Shown here piece by piece: positions 5,774 through 22,663 of a stretch of 32,923 nt of DNA. Source of the stretch: a virus (Duplodnaviria; Heunggongvirae; Uroviricota; Caudoviricetes); IMG/VR virus record IMGVR_UViG_2623620501_000013; one strand, given 5' to 3'. The notes beneath the pieces were generated by a model, which was not told the DNA's origin, did no database searches, and saw nothing but the letters and a program-made list of their open reading frames with translations. Position 1 is the first letter of the stretch, and each line of letters opens with the position of its first letter. The translations under genes were made by a program, and so were the position numbers.

Positions 5774-8046
5774 CAGTAAGTTCCTCCCGTACCTCTGTTA
5801 CCGTCCTGAAGGTTGTATTTGTTCACTGCCTCCGCCACGACCTGACCATCGAGCACCAGTTGTGTGGTGAAATTAATGGGGCTGGCAGGTGGCCCCCAGT
5901 GCGTGAGGTATTCCGGCTGGGTGATGCGTCCGGGTTGAGTTGATGCCGGTTCAGGCTTTGTGTTTCCTGCGGCTTTGTTAACCTGCGCCGGTGATGGCAG
6001 GGCATCAGCTGCGGCTTTTTTCCTGTCTTCCTCCCAGCGCCTCAACCATTCTTCGTTTTCGGTGGAATAGCCTTCCCCAAACTGCCACCATGGCTGGTAT
6101 TTTTTGCGGGCGGCGTCGATTTCTTCCTGGGTGTATCGGGCGCGGATGCGTTTCCAGCGTTCTTCGCTTCCTTCGACGGCGGCGTCTTCCTCCGGGCTGG
6201 TTGCGGTGGCCAGTGCCGTAACAGTGCCACCTAAAGAAAGCAGGCCACCGGCAATACCGGGGAATTTAAATCCTTTGCCTTTTTTGACCGTGTTTTCAAT
6301 TACATCACCAACAACCTCGCCAGTCTTGCCACCGGGTTTACCCCCGGTCAGGATTTTGATCCCGGCCCATGTCAGAGCCGCTGCGGTCATCGCTTCAATC
6401 GCAGTTGTGGCACCCACCACCGCCGTGGTCAGCCCCGGAAACTTTTCACCCGCCCAGCTTATGGCATCGGCCACAGTACCGGACGCATCAGCCAGCTTTT
6501 TCATGCTGTCCATTTGTGAAAATTCAAGCGTGTTTTTAGCCTGTTCGGTTTTAAAATCATTGAGGCCGGATATGAATCTGAAATCAACATCCCCCGCGCG
6601 CTGGCCTTCCGGCAGGGTACGTTGCTGATTAATCGCGTCTTCAACCTTCTTACGGTATTCCGGGTTGTTACGGTAGGCTAACAACGCCATCAACGCCTGA
6701 CGGTCTGCAACCAGTTTCCCGACACCAAAGCCTTCAAGGAGTTTTGCCATCGAATCGTAAACAGCCGTCTGTTCACCTTTATCCCGGGCAGATGACAGTT
6801 TCTTTTGCAACTCCTGATAGCGTTTATCGCTGGCAACGATTTTATCTATCAGGCTGGAAAGCGCGTCTATCGGATCCAGCCCATGCTTGCGCGCTTCAGT
6901 CAGCGTACCTGAAAAATCAATCCCTTTACCGTTGTAATCAATGCTCTTTGCCGCAGTTTCAATATCATGGCTGGTCAGTTTAGCCAGCAGGTTAACCACG
7001 TTATTCCCTGCTTCATCACTGCTACCAGCCGTGATCGCGGCGGCTTCATTCAGCGCAAGAATCTTGACGAAATCATCCTTGCCTTTCATTCCCGCAGCTG
7101 ACGCAGATCCCATTTGTTGGGATAACCAGCGGGCCATATCGTTCAGTTCAAAGCTGCCTTCTTTTCCTGCCGCAATCGCCATATTCAGGACAGTGGAAAT
7201 ATCTTCATCCCGGAATCCAAAGGTCTTTTTGCCCTTAAGCATCACATTAGCCAGGTCTGTCGCTGATGCACCAGAAGCCGTGGCGTATTTCATCAGTTCA
7301 GGTAGCCACTTGCTGGCTGTGTCAAATGAAATACCGCCATCTTTCAGCAGGGCATCCAGTGTTTCGGCTGCATCCTCTTTTGTGCCGCCACCATAGGTCA
7401 CCGCGTTACGGATGCTGCTTTTCATCTGCTCAAGACCGGCTTTGCGCCCCTCCAGCCCGCCATCACTGAAGGCGGTATTGGCCATCATTGCCAGCTGGCG
7501 TTCGTAGCTCATCTGCTTTTTGACCGGCTGCGCCATAATGGCAGCACCTGCCGCGATACCACCACCTATTGTCACGGCATTCCCGCCAAATGCAGCCGCA
7601 CGCGCAAAACGCCCCCGTTCAGGGATAACAGGCGTTTTCGCCATCTTCATCTGAGCCTGAGTGACGCCATCCAGTTCACGCTTGAGTGCCCGGGCTTTTT
7701 CCCGGGTGGCCTGCATGGCGCGCTCCTGCTCCTGCGCAGATTCAAAACCGGCGCGGGCCAGACGGTTATAGCTGGCAACCGTCTGATAAATTTCACGCCG
7801 GATCTCGCGTTCTGCACGAATACCGAGCGTTTCCCGGGCACGGGCGGCACGCTGTATCTCTTTTGCCGCCTTTTTCGTGCTGTTAACGCTTTCCTGCCCG
7901 GTACGCGTCTGCTCTGCGCCTGCCTTCCGGGTTGCCTTTGTTACACCTTCGGTGGCTTTGATAACCTGTTTTTGTCCCTTTTCCAGAACCTGCGAGGCTT
8001 CGTCCTTCGCAGTCAGGGTCATGCCAACTTTGAAATTACCGGCCAT
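5773..8046 (-). CDS. Tail tape measure protein
   Basis: 757 aa, Ala/Gly/Lys-rich with long predicted helical regions; located between the tail chaperone and baseplate genes. Confidence 0.8.
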   Translation of the reverse strand: MAGNFKVGMTLTAKDEASQVLEKGQKQVIKATEGVTKATRKAGAEQTRTGQESVNSTKKAAKEIQRAARARETLGIRAEREIRREIYQTVASYNRLARAGFESAQEQERAMQATREKARALKRELDGVTQAQMKMAKTPVIPERGRFARAAAFGGNAVTIGGGIAAGAAIMAQPVKKQMSYERQLAMMANTAFSDGGLEGRKAGLEQMKSSIRNAVTYGGGTKEDAAETLDALLKDGGISFDTASKWLPELMKYATASGASATDLANVMLKGKKTFGFRDEDISTVLNMAIAAGKEGSFELNDMARWLSQQMGSASAAGMKGKDDFVKILALNEAAAITAGSSDEAGNNVVNLLAKLTSHDIETAAKSIDYNGKGIDFSGTLTEARKHGLDPIDALSSLIDKIVASDKRYQELQKKLSSARDKGEQTAVYDSMAKLLEGFGVGKLVADRQALMALLAYRNNPEYRKKVEDAINQQRTLPEGQRAGDVDFRFISGLNDFKTEQAKNTLEFSQMDSMKKLADASGTVADAISWAGEKFPGLTTAVVGATTAIEAMTAAALTWAGIKILTGGKPGGKTGEVVGDVIENTVKKGKGFKFPGIAGGLLSLGGTVTALATATSPEEDAAVEGSEERWKRIRARYTQEEIDAARKKYQPWWQFGEGYSTENEEWLRRWEEDRKKAAADALPSPAQVNKAAGNTKPEPASTQPGRITQPEYLTHWGPPASPINFTTQLVLDGQVVAEAVNKYNLQDGNRGTGGTY

Positions 8047-12009: not shown

Positions 12010-12960
12010 TTACTCCGTCGTACCATCTGAACCAAATGCCATCTGCCAGAAGCCGTAACCGCCGTTACAGCGCGCTTCGGCACCAAACAGGAACTTCTTA
12101 CGCTTGAACACGTTGTCGCTGTTGTAGTCCGTCTGCTCCACAAAAACAGGCTTTTTACGCAGCTGATAAATCAGCGGTTTCACCGGTTTGGTGGTGTCAA
12201 ACAGGAACCACGCAGAATCCGACGCCAGCTCCGGCATCACCAGCACTTCGGCGGTATTGCGGTACGGGTTCGGCGTACCGTCCGGGAACTTCTCGGCGGT
12301 CATCAGGTAGTTCGCGTCATCCTCCAGCGCCGGTGGCACAACCAGCAGATTCGGGCGAATTTTAAGGGATGCGCCTTCGTCATCTTTCAGACTACGCATG
12401 GCAGTTCTGGCGGCACCGTAGGAGGCTTTCGCTTCGGCAAGCGAGCCAACTTTGAGTTTTTTGGTGCCTTTGTTGGACACCGATTTACCGGCGACCAGGT
12501 GGTCGGTATCAAAGAACGGCTGGCCGTCGTAACAGGGATTGGTAAAACCGTTACTGATAAGGGACGCCACAATATCTGCCGGGAGTTCTGCCGCCGACTG
12601 TCCGGCTCCTTTTGCCTGAAGGGCATAGCCCATAATCTGGTCGTCCTCGATGTCGTTACGATCGACTTCAACCGTGGCTTCCCAGTCCTTGTTACGGATG
12701 GTGTAGTTAAATGCCGCCAGTGATTTAACGACCTTGTCACCAATCCACTCGCGCATTTTCGGGAAACGACTTAACCAGCTGTAGTCGTTTTCCTTGCCGT
12801 TTGATGGCACTTCCATTGCCACCTTCTGCCAGTCAGTTGGTGACTGGTCGAAGGCTTTCTGGAAGGTGGCCTTCAGATTGATAAAAATCTGTTTGACGTT
12901 TTTAACGTTGACTAACACGTTTTGCTCCTTAACTGAAATGAACCCAGACGCCATCGCCAC
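12010..12960 (-). CDS. Major capsid protein (Mu T-like)
   Basis: 316 aa; position after the protease/scaffold gene; translation resembles the Mu-like major head subunit family. Confidence 0.8.
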   Translation of the reverse strand: MAMASGFISVKEQNVLVNVKNVKQIFINLKATFQKAFDQSPTDWQKVAMEVPSNGKENDYSWLSRFPKMREWIGDKVVKSLAAFNYTIRNKDWEATVEVDRNDIEDDQIMGYALQAKGAGQSAAELPADIVASLISNGFTNPCYDGQPFFDTDHLVAGKSVSNKGTKKLKVGSLAEAKASYGAARTAMRSLKDDEGASLKIRPNLLVVPPALEDDANYLMTAEKFPDGTPNPYRNTAEVLVMPELASDSAWFLFDTTKPVKPLIYQLRKKPVFVEQTDYNSDNVFKRKKFLFGAEARCNGGYGFWQMAFGSDGTTE

Positions 12961-13324
12961 AGATGCCGATCACTTTCCCTGCGACAGGACGGGCGCTGCT
13001 GTTGTCGGTTTTTGCCACGGTTACGCTGTCTTCCACGTAGCACAGCTTGCCGACCTGCGATTGTGTGACCGGGTCTGAGGTGCTGTTCACCATCAGAAAA
13101 TCTTTGCCGCAACGCACCAGAACGGTGGCGTCGCCATCACTGCCCTTGCTGTTATCCACCCAGCCATCAGACACGCCCAGCGTAATCTGTGAGGCCGTGG
13201 CACTGGCCGGAACGGCATAACCGGATGCGTTAACGGCCACCATATGACCACCAAAAATTTCGGTCGTAGCGGCAACCGGCACCGGGTTCAGTTCGCCGTC
13301 ACGATAGGGGGTATTGCGATCCAT
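12929..13324 (-). CDS. Hypothetical head-region protein (between protease/scaffold and capsid)
   Basis: 131 aa, Gly/Val-rich; 32-nt overlap with the capsid gene start. Confidence 0.45.
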   Translation of the reverse strand: MDRNTPYRDGELNPVPVAATTEIFGGHMVAVNASGYAVPASATASQITLGVSDGWVDNSKGSDGDATVLVRCGKDFLMVNSTSDPVTQSQVGKLCYVEDSVTVAKTDNSSARPVAGKVIGICGDGVWVHFS

Positions 13325-14449
13325 TTACTCATCTCCTGCGTAACGGGCGACATCCTCTGGATCGACGCCCATCATTGAACAAATGGCGATATCAACATCG
13401 ACGTCATCGCCGGTTTTAATCTGCGCCGGGGCAGGCGACGGCGTTTTGGGTGGTTTGCCGCCGGTCTGGGTCTGACTGAGCGCAACAAGTTTCGGTGCGT
13501 TATCCAGCCAGGACTTAAAGCCGTTGATATCGCGGCTGGCGTAATCTTTCGCCCAGCCTTCCTGTGCCGGAAGCAGTCGCCCGTCAGACAGCGCCGCCTG
13601 AATCAGTGCCCCGGCTTCGGCCTCACCGGACTGTTGCGCCAGTGCGGCATAACGCCCCTGAAGTTCTTCGAAGGCAGCAAGGGAAATGTGTTTTGACGGG
13701 TCATAGGCACTGGCTGACAGGCTGGCGATTTGCTCGTCTTTCTGATTCAGCAGGGCCAGCAGGCTGACGGATGCCGCCGCCGTTCCCTGACCGTTCGAAA
13801 TCATGTCAACGACCTTTTGCAGCTCGTTTTTGATATCTTCCGCCGTTGAGGTAACCGGGAGGTTAAGCATCCAGCGCAGACTGGACAGCAAATCGTTTAA
13901 CAGTTCTTCATCCACTGTTGTGGTCTCCGTTTCAGTTGACAGACTCGCCAGACGGCTGGCCGCAGCCAGCATGACCGCGTCCATACCGTCCAGCGCCGGG
14001 GTATTGGTCAGTGCGGCGTGTAACAGTTCGATGACTTCGCCGCGCCGGTTGTATCCAAATACCGGGGAAATAAATTTGTACTCACCGGCGGCAATCATGG
14101 CCGCCGCGTTCTCCGTCCACTCCACACCGATGGCATACAGGCCCGAACCTTCACGCCATTCCACCTGGCTGAACCAGCCCGCCGCCGGTGCGGGCTTGCC
14201 GTTGTTTACGGCGCGCAGCGTCTGATGTTCGTAATCAATGACAAAAGGCGTGGCGCGGGCGGCCACCTGTGCGACAAGCTGCGCGGCCAGTTCAGCAGTC
14301 AGCACCCATTTACCGCTTTCGACTTCATCGGTATGTGGGCGACCATCCACCGCGCTGAACTCGCCTGCCGGTAACAGCTGGATTTCGCTGTGGGTTGCTT
14401 TAGTAATTTCGAGGCTTAACGCCGCAATTTTCAGTTTCATACGCGGCAT
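13325..14449 (-). CDS. Head maturation protease/scaffold I-like protein
   Basis: ORF open from 14494, but the GTG there sits inside the conserved late motif; the first ATG is at 14449 (MPRMKLKIA...). The exact start is uncertain. Confidence 0.65.
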   Translation of the reverse strand: MPRMKLKIAALSLEITKATHSEIQLLPAGEFSAVDGRPHTDEVESGKWVLTAELAAQLVAQVAARATPFVIDYEHQTLRAVNNGKPAPAAGWFSQVEWREGSGLYAIGVEWTENAAAMIAAGEYKFISPVFGYNRRGEVIELLHAALTNTPALDGMDAVMLAAASRLASLSTETETTTVDEELLNDLLSSLRWMLNLPVTSTAEDIKNELQKVVDMISNGQGTAAASVSLLALLNQKDEQIASLSASAYDPSKHISLAAFEELQGRYAALAQQSGEAEAGALIQAALSDGRLLPAQEGWAKDYASRDINGFKSWLDNAPKLVALSQTQTGGKPPKTPSPAPAQIKTGDDVDVDIAICSMMGVDPEDVARYAGDE

Positions 14450-14464
14450 GATGACGGAAGGGGA

Positions 14465-14500
14465 AGCCGGGGTACTGTGGAGGGTGTTCAGCACCCTGCC
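14465..14500 (-). promoter_or_regulatory. Copy 2 of conserved late-operon motif
   Basis: GGTACTGTGGAGGGTGTTCAGCACCC on the + strand matches the copy at 22631-22656 at 27 of 30 positions; it lies just upstream of the I-like gene start. Confidence 0.45.
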
Positions 14501-14649
14501 ATAACGCGAAAGGATAAAAGGGGAAATAAAACCGTTTTTAAAACCCTTTTAAAAACGATTCTGACGGCATTTATGGGATGCGGTGCTGTTATGCCTCATC
14601 CATGAAGCGTTTATGCTGTCACAGCCGATTACAGCGCGTTTGTCGCCAT

Positions 14650-15201: not shown

Positions 15202-16364
15202 GATGCCTCCGGTGTGTCCTGCATAACCCAGTCTGTCAGCACGTCATCCTCCACCGTCGCCACTGACCAGCGGTCGCCCGACTGTAACGCATACCGCCAC
15301 GCGTTACCGTCCTGCGTGACATGCTCCGCCCGTTCGATGGTTTGCTGCATCAGCACATAGTCGGCGGCGGTCGGGGACGTGTCTGTTGCACTGAGGCGCT
15401 TCATGACGTCAGCCGTAAGGTTTACCGTCTGCCGTGCAGCGCCCGTGGCGGCGACCTGTTCCGGTGAACGGATGGCCAGCGGATATCGCTGGCGCGCATC
15501 CAGTTCGCTGACGTTCGCCAGTCCCCGGGCAAAATCCGGCCCGGTCAGTGTGCCGGTGACATACTGGCGGGCGCTGCGGTAATCGTATTTTTCCAGTTCC
15601 GGCTGCCATGCCACTTTGCCGGGGTTAAAACCGAAGCCCGGGTCGGCGGTATACACGGAGCCGTCCGGCATCTTCAGCCCCATTGTTCTGATGGTCTGGC
15701 CCGGCTGGCCATATTCCTGCTCAACCTCAACCAGTCGCCCCTCGCTGCTCTGTACCGTCAGGCCATATTTCTCCACATCCGACGCCGAACGCGCCCGGAT
15801 ACGGCAGCGGCAGTGATAACCGTCCGGGGGATATAAAAACGCCCAGACAGGATCATCCGCCCGGGCGGTAAAACCGTTCAGGGCGGCGTGTTTCGGGCGG
15901 GTGTGAAGGTCCATCACTGCCACGCGCTCAAAATAAGGCCGGTCAGCCACGTTCGCCATCTGCTGCTGATAACGTCCGGCGTTATATGACGACTGAATAT
16001 TGGTATCAAATATCGTGCGCAACCGGCGCGGCGTCAGTTGTCTGCCGTACAGTTCGCCGGTGTCCTCGTCCACAATCAGCCGCTTACCCAGCCAGCCTTT
16101 TTTCTCCAGCAGCGGCTCCAGTTGTGCGGCAAACTCCCGGAACGTCCCGCCGTCAGCCAGTGCCGCCGTCAGGCCATCACGGATATCCTTCAGAACATCC
16201 AGTTTCAGCACGCCCGCCACCGTGAACGCCCGGGCGTGTGCGATGTCCTTCACATCGTGCCAGCGGAAGCCGATGACGTATCCCTTGCTTTCGAAATACT
16301 TAATCGCTTCTTCCGGCTTCAGGGTGTACGCATAACCCAGGTCAACATCGTCAACAGTCGGCAT
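15198..16364 (-). CDS. Head morphogenesis protein (Mu F-like)
   Basis: 388 aa immediately after the portal gene (14-nt overlap). Confidence 0.75.
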   Translation of the reverse strand: MPTVDDVDLGYAYTLKPEEAIKYFESKGYVIGFRWHDVKDIAHARAFTVAGVLKLDVLKDIRDGLTAALADGGTFREFAAQLEPLLEKKGWLGKRLIVDEDTGELYGRQLTPRRLRTIFDTNIQSSYNAGRYQQQMANVADRPYFERVAVMDLHTRPKHAALNGFTARADDPVWAFLYPPDGYHCRCRIRARSASDVEKYGLTVQSSEGRLVEVEQEYGQPGQTIRTMGLKMPDGSVYTADPGFGFNPGKVAWQPELEKYDYRSARQYVTGTLTGPDFARGLANVSELDARQRYPLAIRSPEQVAATGAARQTVNLTADVMKRLSATDTSPTAADYVLMQQTIERAEHVTQDGNAWRYALQSGDRWSVATVEDDVLTDWVMQDTPEAS

Positions 16365-17946
16365 TCAGTCGCCCCCAGATATCCGCCACAAAGAATGCCT
16401 GCGTCAGCAACTGCCGCAACGTTTCATCCGGCAGCTCCGGCCACGCTTCCGCCAGTACGTTCATAGCCTCGTCTGCATCCCGGCCTTCCTGTATGGCCTG
16501 CACCAGTGGGGCCACCAGTTCGTTCATCCCCTGCGCGATGGCCTCTGCCGGAAGCTCTGCCCGGTCGATGGCGTTCTGTGCCGGGTCGTCCTCCCCGTTG
16601 TCCTGCTGACTGAGTGCGGCAACATTCATCCGCTCACGCAGCTGGCTGAGGCCAGCCTGCACAGGGAGAGACTGTGCCACCGGCACCAGCACCTCTTCGC
16701 CGTCTTTCGGGGTGGGGATGCCGGTTTTTTTGCGCACCCACGACGCCGGGATATCCTTCATCCCCACATTGTTGAGCAACACGCTGACGGCTTCCGCCAC
16801 GCCCTTAATGTCAGCTTCCTGCTGCACATCAAACACCAGGCGCGGAAGACGGCGTGACGGGATATCCTGCCAGCCGTTGAGACTGGCCATCATCTGTATC
16901 AGACTGCTGAACATGCCGGACAGCTGGCGTGCATCAGCGGTCAGAATGTCGTGCCGGACCTCGTTATGGACATTACCCAGTGCGTTGGTGGAGGTTTTAC
17001 CGTCGGCCTGGCTGGTCAGCGTACTGCCCAGAATCACTTTTGAGGTGGTACGCTCCGCCCATTCCACCATCGACATGAACGCCTCCGGTCCGCCGGATGC
17101 GGCTTCCTTGAACTCGATTTCGTTACCCTGCGGCAGGGCTGCCACCGCTTCATGACCCAGATTGACCAGCGCCTCAAGAATGTTATCCCGGTCTTCGTCA
17201 CTGGTGCCCTGTGCATAGTACGCAATGCGCGCTGGAAGACCGTAAATCTCCAGAAATTCCGCCATATCACGCAGCGCAAAGTTTTTAAACAGATACGGCC
17301 AGACCAGTACGCGGAACAGGCCGGATGAACCCAGGAACCCCGACCGGGCGTTGTAACGGTGAACTAGCCAGCCGAACGGCCACAATGCGGAACCGTCCTT
17401 ACCGTCTTCCCCACGGTTGCCGTCATCCAGCCGGAGTTCGTCATTGTGTTCCGGCAGAGTTATGAACCAGTTATGCGGGCGCAGCGTCACCGCATCCGGT
17501 AACCATGTTTTATCCACGAACGCCCAGCTGATTTCCTGACAGCTGAAGCCGTAACCGACACTGCTCATCCCGTTGAGGATGATGTCCTCCATGTCCGGGA
17601 TGCCGTGCAGCCATTCATCCACGGCGGCGGCCAGCTCCTTTTCTGCCTTCGAGGCATTGCGGGGCGGCTCCACCGACCAGTCCAGCGTCAGCAACGCTTT
17701 TTTGCGCTTTTCCATCTCGGCGAACAGATGGCCATCACGTTCTTCCATATCCGCAAACAGCATCGCCTGCGCCGGAAGATAACCGCGTTCGGCTGCTTCC
17801 AGAATACGCGGCAGTTTTCTGATGTTCAGACCACGGGACGGGTGATCGGGATAGATGCGCAGTCGTTCCGCCACTCTGACCGACTGCGTTGTTTTGAGTG
17901 CCTCACGTTTCAGCGGGCGTCCGTAAATATCAACAAGCTGTGCCAT
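16351..17946 (-). CDS. Portal protein (Mu gp29-like)
   Basis: 531 aa, directly downstream of large terminase (3-nt gap). Confidence 0.8.
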   Translation of the reverse strand: MAQLVDIYGRPLKREALKTTQSVRVAERLRIYPDHPSRGLNIRKLPRILEAAERGYLPAQAMLFADMEERDGHLFAEMEKRKKALLTLDWSVEPPRNASKAEKELAAAVDEWLHGIPDMEDIILNGMSSVGYGFSCQEISWAFVDKTWLPDAVTLRPHNWFITLPEHNDELRLDDGNRGEDGKDGSALWPFGWLVHRYNARSGFLGSSGLFRVLVWPYLFKNFALRDMAEFLEIYGLPARIAYYAQGTSDEDRDNILEALVNLGHEAVAALPQGNEIEFKEAASGGPEAFMSMVEWAERTTSKVILGSTLTSQADGKTSTNALGNVHNEVRHDILTADARQLSGMFSSLIQMMASLNGWQDIPSRRLPRLVFDVQQEADIKGVAEAVSVLLNNVGMKDIPASWVRKKTGIPTPKDGEEVLVPVAQSLPVQAGLSQLRERMNVAALSQQDNGEDDPAQNAIDRAELPAEAIAQGMNELVAPLVQAIQEGRDADEAMNVLAEAWPELPDETLRQLLTQAFFVADIWGRLNADC

Positions 17947-17949
17947 TAA

Positions 17950-19647
17950 TTACCATCCTCCTGAACCAAAACGCCCGCCACGGTCACGCCCGCTGCTGCG
18001 TGGGGTGTGTATCTGAAATTTTGCGCTGCGCGATACCGCCAGCGTCCACAGCATGTGCAGACAGTCCGGGCCATCATCGTGGTCGGCTTTGGGGTAGTGG
18101 CGCAGCTGGTCAATCAGCGTCTGATGTGCCGGACTGATGCGGATCAGGCCGTTGGCCATATGCGGCTGAAGGGACTCAATACGCAGCGCTTTATCCTCCA
18201 GCGGGATGACCGGCAGCGCCGGAACCGGCACGCCCAGCGCCGCCGAACGCTCAACCAGCACGGTACGCAGAAACTCCTGAAACTGGACGGACTCAAACGA
18301 CCAGCACAGACAGTGGTATTCCCGCTGATACTTAATCACGTCTTCGATAAGTTTGTTTGGCAGACGTCGGCGGATATCGGCTTCAACCACATCCAGAATG
18401 CCGGTAAAGCGGTTAAAGCCCCCCACGAGAATGGCCGACGGGTCGCGGTTTTTGTTTTTCTTCCCGAGACTGGGGTCAACAGCACCATAAAACACCCATT
18501 CATCAAGACGGTTAACCCAGAACTTAATGCAGCCCGCAAACAGCGCATCTTCACCGCTGACCGGGTCGTTCTGGTATTCAGAATCAAAGGTGTCATGACC
18601 GTCACGGACACGGATTTTCATCAGTGCCAGCAGGGGACGCGCCGCCCATGACACCACCGACCCGGCGAGCATGTCGGCTTCGTTCTGTCGGTAAAGTGCC
18701 TCTGCTGCTTCCGGCTGTTTGTTGCGGATGAGTTCTTCCCACTCGTCCCACAGCTTCATATTGGCAGGCCACTGAATGACGGCCTTAAAACGGGCCGTTT
18801 TCCACATCGGGTTATTGAGTGTGCGCGACAGTACGGAGTCGTAATGCAGGATGGTTCCGATATAAATAATATCTGTTTTACCACCAGCCTCGCCCAGCGG
18901 CATCACGGTTTTGGTGAGCCAGTCATGCAGCTTGTCGCGCTGCTCCGGGTTACGCACCATCTCGTCGTTCTCGATGTCGTCGAGGATAACCAGGTCAGGA
19001 CGGTACGGACCGTGGCGCAGACCACGCAGCTTTTTACCACTACCGGCAACGGTCACCTTGATATTGTTGGCCGTGACGATAGTCCCCATACGCCAGACGC
19101 GACCCTGCCCGCACACTTCCGGGAAATCGTTTTTTAAACGGGGGTTAAATTCCAGTTCAGCCTTGATGGCTTCCAGCATCGGATAAGCCTGGTCGATACT
19201 GTCCATAATGATGACCGGATAATGCTTAATGGCCCGGATAATGGTCCACAGGGTAAACAACTGAGTCACCAGCGTGGATTTTGCTTCACCACGGGGCGCG
19301 GCGATGGCGTCGTTCTCCGGGTCCGGGCTTGCCACAACCTGTGGCAGACGGCTGAACAGGTATTTATGCAGCTCGCTTTTTGCCGGGTTGCGGACGTAGT
19401 GCGGGAAATAGTTTTCGACAAAATAATCGTAGCCCGTCACCGGGTCACAGACTGCCGCCCGGCGGGCCTGTGTGGCCTGCGGGTTTACATCGAACCCCAG
19501 ACATTCAGCCTCGATGGTCTGGCGGAGGTTGGCGATGTACTCCTGCAGGCTTCTCTGAAACTCTTTAATGGAAAGTTTACGTTTTGCCACGTCACACCTG
19601 CGCTGCTTCTGCCTGCGCTTTTTCGATACGTGCGCAGGCGATATCAA
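17950..19647 (-). CDS. Terminase large subunit (Mu gp28-like)
   Basis: 565 aa from the first ATG. An alternative GTG at 19590 lies 1 nt after the methyltransferase stop and would give 546 aa. Confidence 0.8.
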   Translation of the reverse strand: MISPAHVSKKRRQKQRRCDVAKRKLSIKEFQRSLQEYIANLRQTIEAECLGFDVNPQATQARRAAVCDPVTGYDYFVENYFPHYVRNPAKSELHKYLFSRLPQVVASPDPENDAIAAPRGEAKSTLVTQLFTLWTIIRAIKHYPVIIMDSIDQAYPMLEAIKAELEFNPRLKNDFPEVCGQGRVWRMGTIVTANNIKVTVAGSGKKLRGLRHGPYRPDLVILDDIENDEMVRNPEQRDKLHDWLTKTVMPLGEAGGKTDIIYIGTILHYDSVLSRTLNNPMWKTARFKAVIQWPANMKLWDEWEELIRNKQPEAAEALYRQNEADMLAGSVVSWAARPLLALMKIRVRDGHDTFDSEYQNDPVSGEDALFAGCIKFWVNRLDEWVFYGAVDPSLGKKNKNRDPSAILVGGFNRFTGILDVVEADIRRRLPNKLIEDVIKYQREYHCLCWSFESVQFQEFLRTVLVERSAALGVPVPALPVIPLEDKALRIESLQPHMANGLIRISPAHQTLIDQLRHYPKADHDDGPDCLHMLWTLAVSRSAKFQIHTPRSSGRDRGGRFGSGGW

Positions 19648-20332
19648 AATACTGGTTAGTCATTTCAATGCCGGTAAACCGTCCGCCACGGGCAAGTACC
19701 GGGATGGCGGTGGTGCCGCTTCCCATAAACGGATCGAGAACGTGCGCATCCGGTGCCAGCGGTTTAACCAGCTCGGCCATCAGCTGAACCGGCTTTGCGG
19801 TCATGTGCAGTTTTTCGGACGGGACAACACGCTGCGTAATCACACCCGGGAACGGGCCACCGTGCGGACATTTGTCGAGTTTTCCGTTGCTGCCCCAGAC
19901 CACATACTCGGCCTGATGCCGGAAATAGCCGGTGTGTGGCGCACGGGAAGCCTGCGTTTTATCCCAGACAACAAGACCACGCCACAGCACACCACCGGCC
20001 TGAAAAACGTCGGTCATGGTGGGAAGCTGTCGCCAGTCACTGAACACCATGACATAACCACCGGGGCGCACAAGGCGGGCAGCCCCGGACATCCACAGGG
20101 TGCTCCAGTATGCCCAGCTGCGCTGGTCGCGGTTATCCCCGCTGAACTCGGCATACTGGGTGTGACCGACATACTTGTCCGAAGGGGCCATGCTGCGGTC
20201 TGATTTATGTGTGCCACCACTGCTGTAAGGCGGGTCGGTAATGACGGCATCAAAACGTTCGGATAACGCCGGCAGCACATCAAGAACATCACCGCAATAC
20301 AACGTTGCGTTACCAATAATCTGTTTTTGCAT
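19592..20332 (-). CDS. DNA methyltransferase, N6-adenine/N4-cytosine type (DPPY motif), orphan
   Basis: 246 aa with ...AVITDPPY... near the N-terminus and ...DPFMGSGTT... near the C-terminus (permuted motif order). No restriction endonuclease partner is adjacent. Confidence 0.8.
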   Translation of the reverse strand: MQKQIIGNATLYCGDVLDVLPALSERFDAVITDPPYSSGGTHKSDRSMAPSDKYVGHTQYAEFSGDNRDQRSWAYWSTLWMSGAARLVRPGGYVMVFSDWRQLPTMTDVFQAGGVLWRGLVVWDKTQASRAPHTGYFRHQAEYVVWGSNGKLDKCPHGGPFPGVITQRVVPSEKLHMTAKPVQLMAELVKPLAPDAHVLDPFMGSGTTAIPVLARGGRFTGIEMTNQYFDIACARIEKAQAEAAQV

Positions 20333-20352
20333 TACAAATCCCGAATATCAGA

Positions 20353-20372
20353 CGGCCCGGAAAACCGGGCCG
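20353..20372 (-). promoter_or_regulatory. GC-rich hairpin in the 5' leader of the methyltransferase gene
   Basis: CGGCCCGG-AAAA-CCGGGCCG, a perfect 8-bp stem, about 20 nt upstream of the methyltransferase ATG; no U-tract follows on either strand. Confidence 0.3.
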
Positions 20373-20378
20373 CTGTGG

Positions 20379-20879
20379 TTAACTGAAATTATCCTCAAGC
20401 TCTTTAGCGAAGCCTTCGAGCACCTCAAGAAACGGGGCATACTGTGCCGGGTGACGCTCCTTGATGAACGCGCCGAGCCGCTGCACCACTTCCAGTGCCG
20501 TGGCGAGCCGGTCGGTTTCCGGCAGGATTTTTTTGCTGCTGGCCACCGCCTTACTGAGACTGTCGGACAGACTCGCCAGCAGTTCGACGGACTCCTGCGG
20601 CGGGATGTCCGGGTTCTGGTTCAGCCGTTCAAGCGTCGTCTGACACTTCACCACCAGACTGATAAGCACGGTGCGGGCGACACTTTCCAGTCCGTCACCG
20701 GCGAGCGCGTGAGCGGCCCGCAGCTTGTCCCAGTCGTCGCCGTTCTTCATCGCCTGCGTTTTCCAGCGCCGCGCGGTGTCGTGCGGCACGGCGAACTTCA
20801 TGGCGACGATATCCAGCGGAAGCTGGTCAAAGATGTACCCGTTACGGACTTTGTCCCTGATATCCTGTGACCACGCCAT
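20379..20879 (-). CDS. Mu gp27-like protein (putative terminase small subunit)
   Basis: 166 aa upstream of the terminase region; synteny with Mu gene 27. Confidence 0.5.
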   Translation of the reverse strand: MAWSQDIRDKVRNGYIFDQLPLDIVAMKFAVPHDTARRWKTQAMKNGDDWDKLRAAHALAGDGLESVARTVLISLVVKCQTTLERLNQNPDIPPQESVELLASLSDSLSKAVASSKKILPETDRLATALEVVQRLGAFIKERHPAQYAPFLEVLEGFAKELEDNFS

Positions 20880-21121
20880 TAAGCGTCCTTCTGAGCCTGT
20901 TCAATCCTGCGCTGAACTTCGTCGGGATTTTCAAGAACAAACACGTTTTTCCCGGTATCCAGTTCAATGACCGTGCCATCATGTGTACCGTACTGACGGT
21001 AAAAATGGGTGATGCGTTCAGCGAGCACCATGACAGCGCCAGCACCTCCTGAACCTCTGTATTCTGTAAATCTGATAATGCTCACTGTGTCAGACCTTCG
21101 AAAAATCAGTTCTGTGAACAC
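20879..21121 (-). CDS. Hypothetical protein (Mu gp26 position)
   Basis: 80 aa ORF with ATGA-type overlap onto the downstream gene. Confidence 0.35.
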   Translation of the reverse strand: MFTELIFRRSDTVSIIRFTEYRGSGGAGAVMVLAERITHFYRQYGTHDGTVIELDTGKNVFVLENPDEVQRRIEQAQKDA

Positions 21122-21288
21122 TGCCGGATGCCGTCAATAATCCGGCAGACCTGCGCCGCCGCGTCTAACAGCTGTCCCGTTCTGTTAATGTCTGTGCATC
21201 CCACCGGAAGCAACATCACCAGAAACAGGGCCAGAACACAGCGCGCGGCTTTACGTGGCGTTCTGTGGGTCCAGTGCTGACGCGTCAT
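21106..21288 (-). CDS. Small putative lipoprotein/signal-anchored protein downstream of endolysin
   Basis: 60 aa; hydrophobic stretch ending LLPVGC (imperfect lipobox); start overlaps the endolysin stop. Confidence 0.35.
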   Translation of the reverse strand: MTRQHWTHRTPRKAARCVLALFLVMLLPVGCTDINRTGQLLDAAAQVCRIIDGIRQCSQN

Positions 21289-21830
21289 ATCGCCACGCGC
21301 TCCTTCAGCCAGCCATAAACAAACGATTCGTTAGCCTCGCGTTTCTCCGCCAGTTCCAGATAGCGGTCCCCCTGCGTACAGTTCAGGGCCGTCAGCATCA
21401 CCCGTTCACCGTCCTGACCGCGATTATTCAGGAAGGCGCGCAATGCACTGATGGTACGAGGCCCGATGCGTCCGTCTGCGTCCATATCCGGGTACAGCCT
21501 GCCGCGCAGATTGAACACATTCAGCCAGCGCTGAAGCATTCTGGACGCCACGGTTGGCCCCATATTCACACCGGTATCACACAGCTCTGCGGCAATATCA
21601 GGGGATAATGCGGCGACCTGGTCGAATCGCGGACCGTACCAGTAATCGGCTTCAAGGATGTCCAGCGCCTGCTCGCGGGTTAAATCGCGCATATCACCAC
21701 GGTATCCGTGGGCACGGGCGACTTTTTCCGTAATGCCCCATTTGGTCGGACCGCCCTTATCATCCGGGTGATTGACATAACCACCTTCCTTGCCCAGGAC
21801 TTCATCAAAAATTTTATCTTTTGATTTCAT
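21285..21830 (-). CDS. Endolysin, GH108-like catalytic domain with C-terminal peptidoglycan-binding domain
   Basis: 181 aa; N-terminal ...EGGYVNHPDDKGGPTKWGIT... resembles the GH108 family; GAGG ribosome-binding site 12 nt upstream of the ATG. Confidence 0.7.
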   Translation of the reverse strand: MKSKDKIFDEVLGKEGGYVNHPDDKGGPTKWGITEKVARAHGYRGDMRDLTREQALDILEADYWYGPRFDQVAALSPDIAAELCDTGVNMGPTVASRMLQRWLNVFNLRGRLYPDMDADGRIGPRTISALRAFLNNRGQDGERVMLTALNCTQGDRYLELAEKREANESFVYGWLKERVAI

Positions 21831-22116
21831 GTGGATGCCTCAGTAACGAAAGGATTTTTGACAAATTCCCGTGCGCCCACACGATAAGCGCACAGAAAAC
21901 CAGATTCAGCGCCACAACCAGCCAGCTGGAATGTGTGTACGTACCGGACAGCCAGCGGAACGGGATGATGACGTAGCCGAGCATCAGCCAGTACGCCAGC
22001 CAGGTAATCATCGGTTTATGCGCTGCACCGTGGCGGCGATACACAAACAACCCCAGCACAATGGCGAGACACAGCCAGACGTTCACGATACCGGCAAGGC
22101 TACTTTCCATTTCCAC
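21814..22116 (-). CDS. Small membrane protein (holin/antiholin-like)
   Basis: 100 aa with about three hydrophobic helices, immediately upstream of the endolysin. Confidence 0.5.
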   Translation of the reverse strand: MEMESSLAGIVNVWLCLAIVLGLFVYRRHGAAHKPMITWLAYWLMLGYVIIPFRWLSGTYTHSSWLVVALNLVFCALIVWAHGNLSKILSLLRHPHEIKR

Positions 22117-22492
22117 CCCCTCCGCCGCGCAGTCTGGAAAACAGGCCGAACAGCGATGAAATTTCCTGTTGATAAAGAAAGGTCAGTATCTTGATGGATA
22201 ACGCCGAGACACCGACCGCACACAATGCATCGAGTGGCTTGTCGTTGTAGTGGGTCAGCCACTGCATCAGTGACGCAGCCACGCCAGCCCCCAGAACGCC
22301 AACCACAAACGCGACGAGCAGGTGGATAGCCATTCGCCATACCGGGATTTCTTTCTGCTGCGTGACAACAAAAAGCGCTCCGGCAAACGCGCCCACCACA
22401 ACCCCGAAATCGGTATTGGTGAGAAGGCCAAACACACTGGCACCACCGATGGTGACTGCCACAGCTCCGCCGCCTGATAAGGGTTCAGACAT
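22100..22492 (-). CDS. Holin-like membrane protein
   Basis: Multiple Gly/Ala/Val-rich transmembrane segments; ATG at 22492 has an AGGAG site 6 nt upstream. The ORF is also open from 22552. Confidence 0.5.
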   Translation of the reverse strand: MSEPLSGGGAVAVTIGGASVFGLLTNTDFGVVVGAFAGALFVVTQQKEIPVWRMAIHLLVAFVVGVLGAGVAASLMQWLTHYNDKPLDALCAVGVSALSIKILTFLYQQEISSLFGLFSRLRGGGGGNGK

Positions 22493-22625
22493 GAGTTTCT
22501 CCTGTAAATCTGAGCCACTGACGGCCCGTAAATAACACCCGGTCAAAGGCACAGAATGACTTTTGCCGGGCGCTATCCCTTAAGGTGCCTTGTGGTCTGA
22601 GTGGACAGGGTAAACGGTATGCTGT

Positions 22626-22663
22626 GGTGGGTACTGCTGGGGGTGTTCAGCACCCCCGGCAGG
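22626..22663 (-). promoter_or_regulatory. Copy 1 of conserved late-operon motif upstream of the lysis cassette
   Basis: GGTACTGCTGGGGGTGTTCAGCACCCCC on the + strand; contains the inverted repeat GGGGGTG-N5-CACCCCC. Confidence 0.45.

Follow-up and report, generated by a model that had tools for sequence, protein, structure and literature searches.

An orphan beta-class DNA methyltransferase gene forms a dispensable cassette among the packaging genes of a Mu-like Escherichia coli prophage

A gene for a beta-class amino-DNA methyltransferase lies between the DUF1804 gene and the large terminase gene (terL) of a Mu-like transposable prophage of Escherichia coli, and its absence from near-identical sister prophages makes it a dispensable accessory gene. 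The prophage was analysed as a window of 32,923 nucleotides with 99.9% identity to strain 2824, and is also present in EPEC E2348/69. We consider it probable that the product is a late-expressed orphan enzyme, most likely acting on adenine N6, whose methylation guards phage DNA against restriction; in this reading we infer the enzymatic activity, the target base and sequence, when the gene is expressed and the protection that it gives. The gene is already annotated (RefSeq WP_021536553.1, 'DNA-methyltransferase') and is an ordinary kind of phage accessory gene.

The methyltransferase coding sequence (19592..20332, minus strand, as for all features described here) begins with ATG, ends in a TGA at 19594-19592 and encodes 246 aa, exactly the reading frame that an earlier note on this DNA had described as a DPPY-type methyltransferase. 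The product matches Pfam PF01555 (N6_N4_Mtase) at 82.3 bits (E = 6.5e-23), above the gathering threshold of 26.7 bits, and matches both phrog_67 (1.1e-55) and PADLOC MTase_II (1.6e-64) over its full length. The catalytic motif IV, DPPY (residues 33-36), is encoded at 20225..20236 and sits within a stretch, T32-D33-P34-P35-Y36-S37-S38-G39, that is unchanged across 42 members of the clade. The SAM-binding motif I, FMGSGT (residues 202-207), is encoded at 19712..19729; here D200, F202, M203, G204 and S205 are invariant in the same 42 proteins. Because motif I is C-terminal to DPPY, the motif order is that of the beta class. An AlphaFold model (pLDDT 84.8, pTM 0.85) has CcrM, M.BceJIV and M1.HpyAVI as its best PDB fold matches (TM 0.65-0.76), and Foldseek places these together with M.MboIIA, M.PvuII and M.RsrI at E = 1e-15 to 1e-10. 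By motif order, Pfam family and predicted fold, the protein belongs to the beta class of amino-DNA methyltransferases. It most likely forms N6-methyladenine.

The protein scores 56 against the 830-bit cut-off of the CcrM NCBIfam equivalog, 40 against the cut-off of 292 for PRK11524 (adenine-specific DNA-methyltransferase) and 76 against the cut-off of 244 for PRK13699. With scores this far below the cut-offs of the CcrM, YhdJ and PRK13699 families, and with solved relatives about 22% identical, the transfer of a recognition sequence from either source was rejected, in agreement with the earlier view that the sequence does not disclose the specificity. The gene is under purifying selection: dN/dS against relatives is 0.04-0.10, indicating that it has been kept functional. 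Its GC content is 57.4% as compared to 56-60% in the flanks, so that no compositional anomaly marks a recent acquisition. A megablast search of the gene against the phage collection returned no matches, relatives in that collection being found at the protein level only.

The downstream neighbour, terL (17950..19590, 546 aa from its GTG), is identified by phrog_38 (3.1e-143), TIGR01630 (2.4e-24) and its PGAP name. Upstream is the DUF1804 gene (20379..20879), which matches PF08822 (1.8e-52) and phrog_756 ('DNA binding protein') and which, in relatives, is always upstream of terL. The earlier note had placed the methyltransferase between the small and large terminase genes; the gene does lie between DUF1804 and terL, and 'small terminase' is a name that DUF1804 receives from its position. 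By BLASTP, neither the prophage DUF1804 protein nor TerL has detectable similarity to Mu gp27 and gp28, so the comparison with Mu is positional. At that position Mu has 7 nt between gp27 and gp28, in keeping with the earlier note that nothing lies there. The orphan status of the enzyme is likewise upheld. Its neighbours (DUF1804, TerL, portal, endolysin, holins and Mor) are all recognisable phage genes of the lysis and head region; the annotation of the complete prophage contains no restriction enzyme, mom, second methyltransferase or Com homologue; PADLOC matches the methyltransferase itself only; and the long antisense reading frames match no family.

The accessory nature of the gene is evident from sister prophages with 98-99% identical flanks, in which DUF1804 is followed directly by terL. 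Pairwise alignment of the window with E. coli STEC346 delimits a segment of 743 nt (19601..20343) that is specific to methyltransferase-bearing prophages. In its place, methyltransferase-less sisters such as STEC346 carry 7 nt (TGTATAC) and retain the terL ribosome-binding site. The DUF1804, TerL and portal of these sisters are 99% identical to those of the window, and no substitute modification gene is annotated in the methyltransferase-less sister prophage. Among viral contigs, the gap from DUF1804 to terL measures 792 nt at filled sites as compared to 56 nt at empty ones, with 13 filled and 7 empty sites in close relatives. The methyltransferase is present in 36 of the 55 E. coli genomes that carry the same DUF1804 gene. 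The earlier description of the gene as 'inserted' therefore survives as a clean presence/absence polymorphism with exact boundaries, whose direction may have been insertion or deletion, as both fit. The motif at the right-hand boundary is found as well in a relative from a more distant group whose site is empty, which again fits either direction.

At the junction with terL, a single base (19591) separates the methyltransferase stop from a GTG at 19588..19590. The earlier note had offered this GTG as a possible start of terL, and RefSeq/PGAP does place the start there (19590-19588). The same GTG must start terL in methyltransferase-less relatives, where only intergenic sequence is found upstream. 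The arrangement of stop, one nucleotide and GTG is kept in Escherichia, Intestinirhabdus and other relatives, and distant Mu-like phages have ATGA or GTGA overlaps with terL. A Shine-Dalgarno-like AGGTG for terL (19595..19599) is embedded in the two sense codons (CAG GTG) that precede the methyltransferase stop, and AGGTGTGACGTG likewise occurs in relatives whose site is empty. As terL has its own ribosome-binding site and works in relatives that lack the methyltransferase, translational coupling is not required.

Late expression, which had been proposed together with coupling, fits the local signals: the gene is co-oriented with its neighbours in the late operon, the sequence from DUF1804 to the methyltransferase yields no predicted sigma-70-like promoter, and the junction is conserved across genera. 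A search for promoters and terminators around the gene found none, and terL begins too close, 1 nt later, for a terminator to follow it. The earlier description of the gene as a moron is thus not supported in the strict sense of that term, which entails expression from the prophage with a promoter and terminator of its own. A stable RNA hairpin (GGCCCGG-TTTT-CCGGGCC core; 20349..20375) does directly follow the DUF1804 stop, but it is outside the cassette and is found at filled and empty sites alike. The fold containing it has a free energy of -23.1 kcal/mol (z = -2.7). The stem is retained, with differing loops, in Buttiauxella, Intestinirhabdus and other relatives, and the terminator scan made no call there. 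Located between DUF1804 and the methyltransferase, this hairpin could reduce expression of the latter.

Relatives of the enzyme occupy several settings. The order DUF1804-methyltransferase-terL and its tight junction recur in other enterobacterial genera. The closest phage homologues (55-57% identity) belong to P2-like phages and have a Com homologue directly before or overlapping them; other clade members occupy further late positions, where they follow Com, Ogr, tail-fibre genes or the portal gene, or lie between gpX and gpR. From Enterobacterales to Burkholderiales, the central region of the protein is nearly invariant. The literature yielded no activity, target base or recognition sequence for any clade member, and nothing specific on this gene, the methylome of the E2348/69 Mu-like prophage, the specificity of Bpm or methyltransferases between terminase genes.

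Taken together, these observations suggest a model in which the gene, a dispensable accessory in a variable slot between DUF1804 and terL, would encode a functional, SAM-dependent beta-class enzyme. Its transcription probably occurs only within the late lysis/head operon and its translation probably starts from its own weak ribosome-binding site; ribosomes terminating at its TGA could then continue to the terL GTG 1 nt downstream. Late in the lytic cycle, replicated phage DNA would be methylated before headful packaging, and the methylated DNA, once injected, would resist those restriction enzymes of the next host whose sites overlap the methyltransferase target. The enzyme may in this way fill the role of Mom in a lineage without com-mom. 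Orphan methyltransferases are the commonest flexible genes among near-identical phage genomes and have been interpreted as anti-restriction functions (PMC7468147); by analogy, such a role is plausible here.

Alternative readings concern the modified base, the breadth of specificity and the biological purpose. PF01555 spans N6-adenine and N4-cytosine enzymes, as does the beta-class fold, and the fold matches include M.PvuII and a rotifer N4-cytosine methyltransferase. Nevertheless, the DPPY form of motif IV is the one typically seen in adenine enzymes, N4-cytosine enzymes usually having SPPY or SPPF, and adenine enzymes also head the sequence and fold matches. An N4-cytosine product is thus improbable. 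A broad or relaxed adenine specificity, analogous to that of Mom, Hia5/Hin1523 and M.EcoGII, is considerably less likely than our main reading. Such an activity would be toxic if expressed early, and toxicity would account for clade members being placed behind a Com switch or buried in a terminase operon. Consistent with this proposal, the closest P2-like homologues are Com-linked, as mom is in Mu; the nearly invariant central region, putatively the recognition region, fits one shared or loose specificity; and non-specific adenine methyltransferases that are silent in lysogens are documented in Mu-like and lambdoid prophages (PMC3299994, PMC5778455). However, a conserved recognition region equally fits an ordinary fixed site, placement in a late operon is common for any phage methyltransferase, the protein has only catalytic motifs in common with the M.EcoGII-type protein, and it is unrelated to the Dam-like alpha-class enzymes of the Hia5 type (PMC3299994). 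As a more speculative extension, the compact beta-class clade, with its thousands of members, might be a second and independent family of Mom-like adenine enzymes with low specificity. The Com switch of P2-like phages and the terL stop-start fusion of Mu-like phages would then be alternative means to hold back a toxic activity until the last minutes of infection.

Two further readings assign the gene a purpose other than protection. In phage P1, cleavage at pac is regulated by Dam methylation, and the repeated adjacency of the methyltransferase to terL in Mu-like phages, with stop and start codons overlapping or nearly so, could indicate that the neighbouring terminase requires, or is regulated by, methylation at the pac region or on concatemers. 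That sisters with 99% identical DUF1804, TerL and portal have neither the methyltransferase nor a substitute, and that clade members occupy many other late positions, leaves such a packaging role with scarcely any probability. Lysogenic conversion, in which an epigenetic regulator expressed from the prophage alters host gene expression, also seems very unlikely. Orphan methyltransferases can regulate host genes, and this prophage is found in pathogenic E. coli such as E2348/69; against this, no promoter is predicted upstream of the gene, it is located within the late operon with an essential packaging gene on either side, and prophage methyltransferases comparable to it stay silent in lysogens (PMC5778455, PMC3299994). 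Protection of phage DNA from restriction by a late-expressed adenine methyltransferase is accordingly the reading that we favour.

The importance of the gene is modest. The locus offers a clean natural case of an accessory cassette, one gene in size, set among the packaging genes of a transposable phage. Prophages that are otherwise 98-99% identical, that of the reference strain EPEC E2348/69 among them, carry natural plus and minus alleles, which make for an easy comparison of methylation and restriction evasion. If relaxed specificity proved true, the enzyme could serve as a tool in the manner of Hia5 and M.EcoGII; if not, the very large class of orphan phage methyltransferases gains a further uncharacterised member.

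The closest known members of the clade are the enzymes of the P2-like phages Chuche (of Escherichia) and KS5 (of Burkholderia, gp20) and Bpm of Bordetella phage BPP-1; they agree with the methyltransferase in size and motif order, with full-length identities of 55% to Chuche and 52% to Bpm. These enzymes are likewise uncharacterised orphans in the late regions of temperate phages. The P2-like enzymes differ in that a Com-type translational regulator precedes or overlaps them, or in being near the prophage end, whereas the prophage enzyme lies between DUF1804 and terL without Com; in KS5, a Com homologue accompanies the methyltransferase, an arrangement resembling that of mom in Mu (PMC3091744). 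ORF48 of phage B3, compared in a test for kinship with known non-specific enzymes, has no similarity to the methyltransferase. At greater distance, CcrM (6pbd), M.BceJIV (8urk) and M1.HpyAVI (5hfj) have the fold and catalytic architecture in common with it at about 22% identity; of these, M1.HpyAVI has a comparably small size and can be aligned from end to end.

Functional parallels are found in enzymes of other families. Hia5, Hin1523 and Nma1821 are non-specific adenine methyltransferases of Mu-like prophages without mom and block many restriction enzymes (Drozdz et al. 2012, PMC3299994). The present enzyme resembles them as an orphan of adenine type in a Mu-like prophage lacking mom, with presumed lytic-only expression and presumed generalised protection from restriction. 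In contrast, Hia5-type enzymes are of the Dam-related alpha class and occupy the right-end mom position after a Com homologue (PMC3299994), and membership of this group was rejected on the beta-class motif order, the location between DUF1804 and terL in the packaging module, and the lack of an annotated Com homologue in the prophage. M.EcoGII and M.EcoGI are closer in architecture, being beta-class (DPPY...FxGxG), of E. coli prophage origin and silent in lysogens (Murray et al. 2018, PMC5778455). They differ in length (349 aa), and a very similar enzyme is present in Stx phage 1720a-02; as only motif segments of 56 aa and 32 aa align with that 352-aa protein, membership of the M.EcoGII family was also rejected. 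Mu Mom is the proposed functional analogue, a late, dispensable modification that shields a transposable phage from restriction, although it has an unrelated acyltransferase fold, a different chemistry, a right-end location and control by Com and Dam/OxyR (PMC3299994).

The methyltransferase (MTase) gene occupies window 19592-20332 on the minus strand, running from an ATG to a TGA stop and encoding 246 residues, with the motifs DPPY (residues 33-36) and FMGSGT (residues 202-207) in its translation; the earlier note had described this DPPY-type ORF correctly to the base. Across a 46-nt spacer upstream lies the DUF1804 gene (20379-20879; PF08822, E = 1.8e-52). Downstream are the large terminase gene, terL (phrog_38, E = 3e-143; TIGR01630), and then a Mu-type portal gene (PF06074). 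As that note had also observed, a single base separates the MTase stop codon (19594-19592) from a GTG (19590-19588), and this is the codon at which RefSeq starts terL. The ORF itself is already named 'DNA-methyltransferase' in RefSeq (WP_021536553.1).

The proposed location between the small and large terminase genes holds on the terL side, while DUF1804 is assigned the small-terminase role from its position. By BLASTP, neither the DUF1804 protein nor TerL resembles its Mu counterpart (gp27 or gp28; L093, Mu 12316-14554), making the comparison with Mu positional; there, as claimed, nothing intervenes, only 7 nt separating gp27 and gp28. Across window 17950-20879 the portal is Mu-type, yet DUF1804 and TerL are unlike those of Mu, and the packaging genes belong to a lineage other than that of Mu.

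Window 16000-23000 matches the chromosome of E. coli strain 2824 at 99.9% identity, and its first 95% (16000-22660) matches EPEC E2348/69 at 97.6%. In strain 2824 the region sits in a ~36-kb Mu-like transposable prophage that carries a repressor, Mu-type transposase, AAA ATPase, GemA, Mor, holins, endolysin, head and contractile tail. The annotation of this whole prophage lists neither a restriction enzyme nor a com-mom pair nor another methyltransferase, in keeping with an orphan enzyme; long antisense ORFs over the MTase gene and small neighbouring ORFs have no protein-family match. The prophage is inserted in hyfB in 2824 (L001 1567-2121, 38054-39520), and a sister prophage without the MTase lies in a PAAR-domain gene in E. 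coli STEC346 (L174 1-1027); differing sites of this kind are expected of random, Mu-type transposition and not of site-specific integration.

Otherwise near-identical sister prophages have swapped lysis modules: the window encodes a GH108 endolysin with a PG_binding_3 domain (21285-21830), and STEC346, RM9088 and 08-00022 carry an M15 metallopeptidase (L004 4958-5335, L006 4711-5088). In RM9088 (L005 1613-3915), ISEc12, an IS21-family element, lies directly against the DUF1804 gene and the prophage lacks its terminase side, making this locus a decayed copy of the same prophage. Just upstream of DUF1804, a small minus-strand ORF (20879-21121; phrog_7691, function unknown) has 47% GC against 56-60% in its neighbours and 69% to 100% identity across sister prophages, and may be another mobile accessory gene. 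A palindromic hairpin with a 13-bp stem (22634-22662) lies between the first holin gene and a 95-aa ORF after Mor, a stretch in which one would look for the late promoter driving the lysis/head operon.

Against PF01555 N6_N4_Mtase the protein reaches 82.3 bits (cut-off 26.7). It also matches phrog_67, a large family of phage methyltransferases, at 1e-55 and, over its full length, a PADLOC Type II methyltransferase model at 1.6e-64. It falls far under the curated cut-offs of NCBIfam CcrM, PRK11524 (adenine-specific DNA-methyltransferase) and PRK13699. Of the solved structures, that of the compact enzyme M1.HpyAVI (5hfj) is closest in sequence (E = 5e-15 over the full length). An AlphaFold2 model built from 42 homologues is confident (pLDDT 84.8, pTM 0.85), and its top PDB matches, CcrM, M.BceJIV, M1.HpyAVI, M.MboIIA, M.PvuII and M.RsrI, are all beta-class amino-methyltransferases (TM 0.65-0.76, identity about 22%). 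The motif order, DPPY before FxGxG, is likewise that of the beta class. Because these solved relatives are so distant, no specificity can be transferred from them.

Natural alleles with and without the gene define its boundaries. Among 55 complete E. coli genomes with a DUF1804 gene at >=95% identity, 36 carry the MTase (counted at >=90%). In STEC346, terL directly follows DUF1804 after a 52-nt gap. Alignment with this empty site shows that filled and empty forms are alike through ...GTCTGATATT (window 20344) and once more from CAGGTGTGACGTG (19600 and below in the window); what separates the shared stretches is 743 nt in the window (19601-20343) and TGTATAC in the empty site. Since the shared sequence restarts at 19600, CAG GTG TGA, the last two sense codons and stop of the MTase, exists upstream of terL even where the gene is missing, and it contains the terL ribosome-binding site AGGTG. 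A second, independent sample of close viral contigs anchored on DUF1804 gave 13 filled (792-nt gap) and 7 empty (56-nt gap) junctions. The STEC346 prophage has no annotated substitute modification gene; the MTase is therefore dispensable, and the terminase can do without it.

The empty site of L080, a locus from a more distant group, keeps the boundary motif TTCAGGGGTAA, which is the MTase gene end in its filled relatives. This fits either repeated deletion or a cassette swapped through recombination within the conserved flanks. Elsewhere among Mu-like prophages, the DUF1804-terL junction is empty or holds different small ORFs (L083 4470-4706; L085 4470-4715; L079 1914-2213; L082 4516-4924; L036 5537-5990), and it is thus a general, insertion-tolerant slot for accessory genes. 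Slot contents include a conserved ~78-81-aa ORF, small-ORF pairs ahead of the MTase, and a 99-aa ORF whose N-terminus resembles, by eye, a lipoprotein signal.

Right after the DUF1804 stop is a stable, GC-rich hairpin (20349-20375, minus) with a GGCCCGG-TTTT-CCGGGCC core, in a fold of -23 kcal/mol. It is present in both filled and empty forms and so lies outside the cassette. It has no proper T-tract. Its stem is kept, with differing loops, in Buttiauxella, Intestinirhabdus and other relatives. In the transcript, the hairpin may serve as an attenuator or as a stabilising element between the small-terminase and large-terminase positions.

The DUF1804-methyltransferase-TerL-portal order recurs in Buttiauxella and Intestinirhabdus prophages and other enterobacterial contigs, at identities of 76-81% for the MTase, 88-91% for TerL and 75-78% for DUF1804. 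The junction is conserved too, with one or two bases between the MTase stop and the GTG of terL. The GC content of the gene (57.4%) matches its flanks (56-60%) and thus does not point to a recent foreign source; dN/dS values of 0.04-0.10 in comparisons with relatives show that its function has been maintained. E. coli has two allele classes of the gene, which differ almost only at residues 64-109 (window 20006-20143; for example YWSTLWMSGAARLVR versus FWCSMWISHALHRLN). With dS of 0.90 inside this patch, 0.08-0.11 elsewhere in the gene, and flanks 98-99% identical, the patch is a tract that intragenic recombination brought in from a diverged allele rather than a mark of decay.

The wider clade comprises >5,900 proteins matching at E < 1e-20. 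Comparing 42 members (54-83% identity) shows hardly any variation in the central region, about residues 99-160, which should contact DNA; this near-invariance suggests one specificity shared across Enterobacterales and Burkholderiales. Sampling by the clade profile gave 80 viral loci, in which members occupy many late-region positions: between DUF1804 and terL (12 loci, members at 56-59% identity among them), between terL and the portal gene (1), after the portal gene (4), in the P2 gpX-gpR slot (2) and after tail-fibre assembly genes (several). In ~30 loci from P2-like prophages (L135-L161), the gene directly follows one for a Com-type zinc-finger translational regulator. Among distant Mu-like phages, the MTase stop overlaps the start of the next gene as ATGA or GTGA, that gene being identified as terL in L053 and L125 and taken for terL from its position in L020.

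The late operon contains the MTase gene in the same orientation, after the genes for Mor, the holins and the endolysin. Transcription would be confined to late lytic growth, with translation from the gene's own ribosome-binding site, a weak GGGA in E. coli and a stronger GGGGGA in relatives. Replicated phage DNA would then be methylated ahead of headful packaging, and injected DNA would be shielded from restriction systems whose sites overlap the MTase target. Ribosomes ending at the MTase TGA may go on to the terL GTG; such coupling, as proposed earlier, is plausible but not required, since terL in relatives with an empty site relies on that GTG and its ribosome-binding site too.

An epigenetic role in the lysogen is disfavoured by this late-operon position and by the absence of any predicted promoter for the gene. 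A function in packaging, as in phage P1, is contradicted by MTase-less prophages whose packaging genes are 99% identical. Both the Com linkage and the invariant core would suit a Mom-like enzyme of relaxed specificity, yet nothing in the sequence speaks for it: the MTase is unrelated to Hia5 (alpha class) and has only motifs in common with an M.EcoGII-type enzyme. N4-cytosine activity is possible but less likely, as DPPY points to N6-adenine over N4-cytosine in these methyltransferase families.

Taken together, the MTase is an ordinary orphan phage methyltransferase, annotated before but uncharacterised; the observation in the earlier note is correct and its interpretation essentially right. 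Added here are the exact cassette boundaries, the natural plus/minus alleles, the conserved terL junction and the link to Com-controlled homologues. Orphan methyltransferases are the commonest flexible genes among near-identical phage genomes and have been read as anti-restriction (PMC7468147). The protective role proposed here is that of Mu Mom, and Hia5-type enzymes are thought to play it in Mu-like prophages without mom (PMC3299994).

The nearest phage in the reference collection is the P2-like Escherichia phage Chuche (55% identity), in which com (L002 5778-5984) overlaps the start of the MTase gene (5929-6720). The same Com-methylase pair has been noted, uncharacterised, in Burkholderia phage KS5 (PMC3091744). 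Because the P2-like homologues are preceded and overlapped by a Com regulator, expression in this clade is suggested to be tightly gated. The overlap in Chuche resembles that of com and mom in Mu, where the Com arrangement controls mom.
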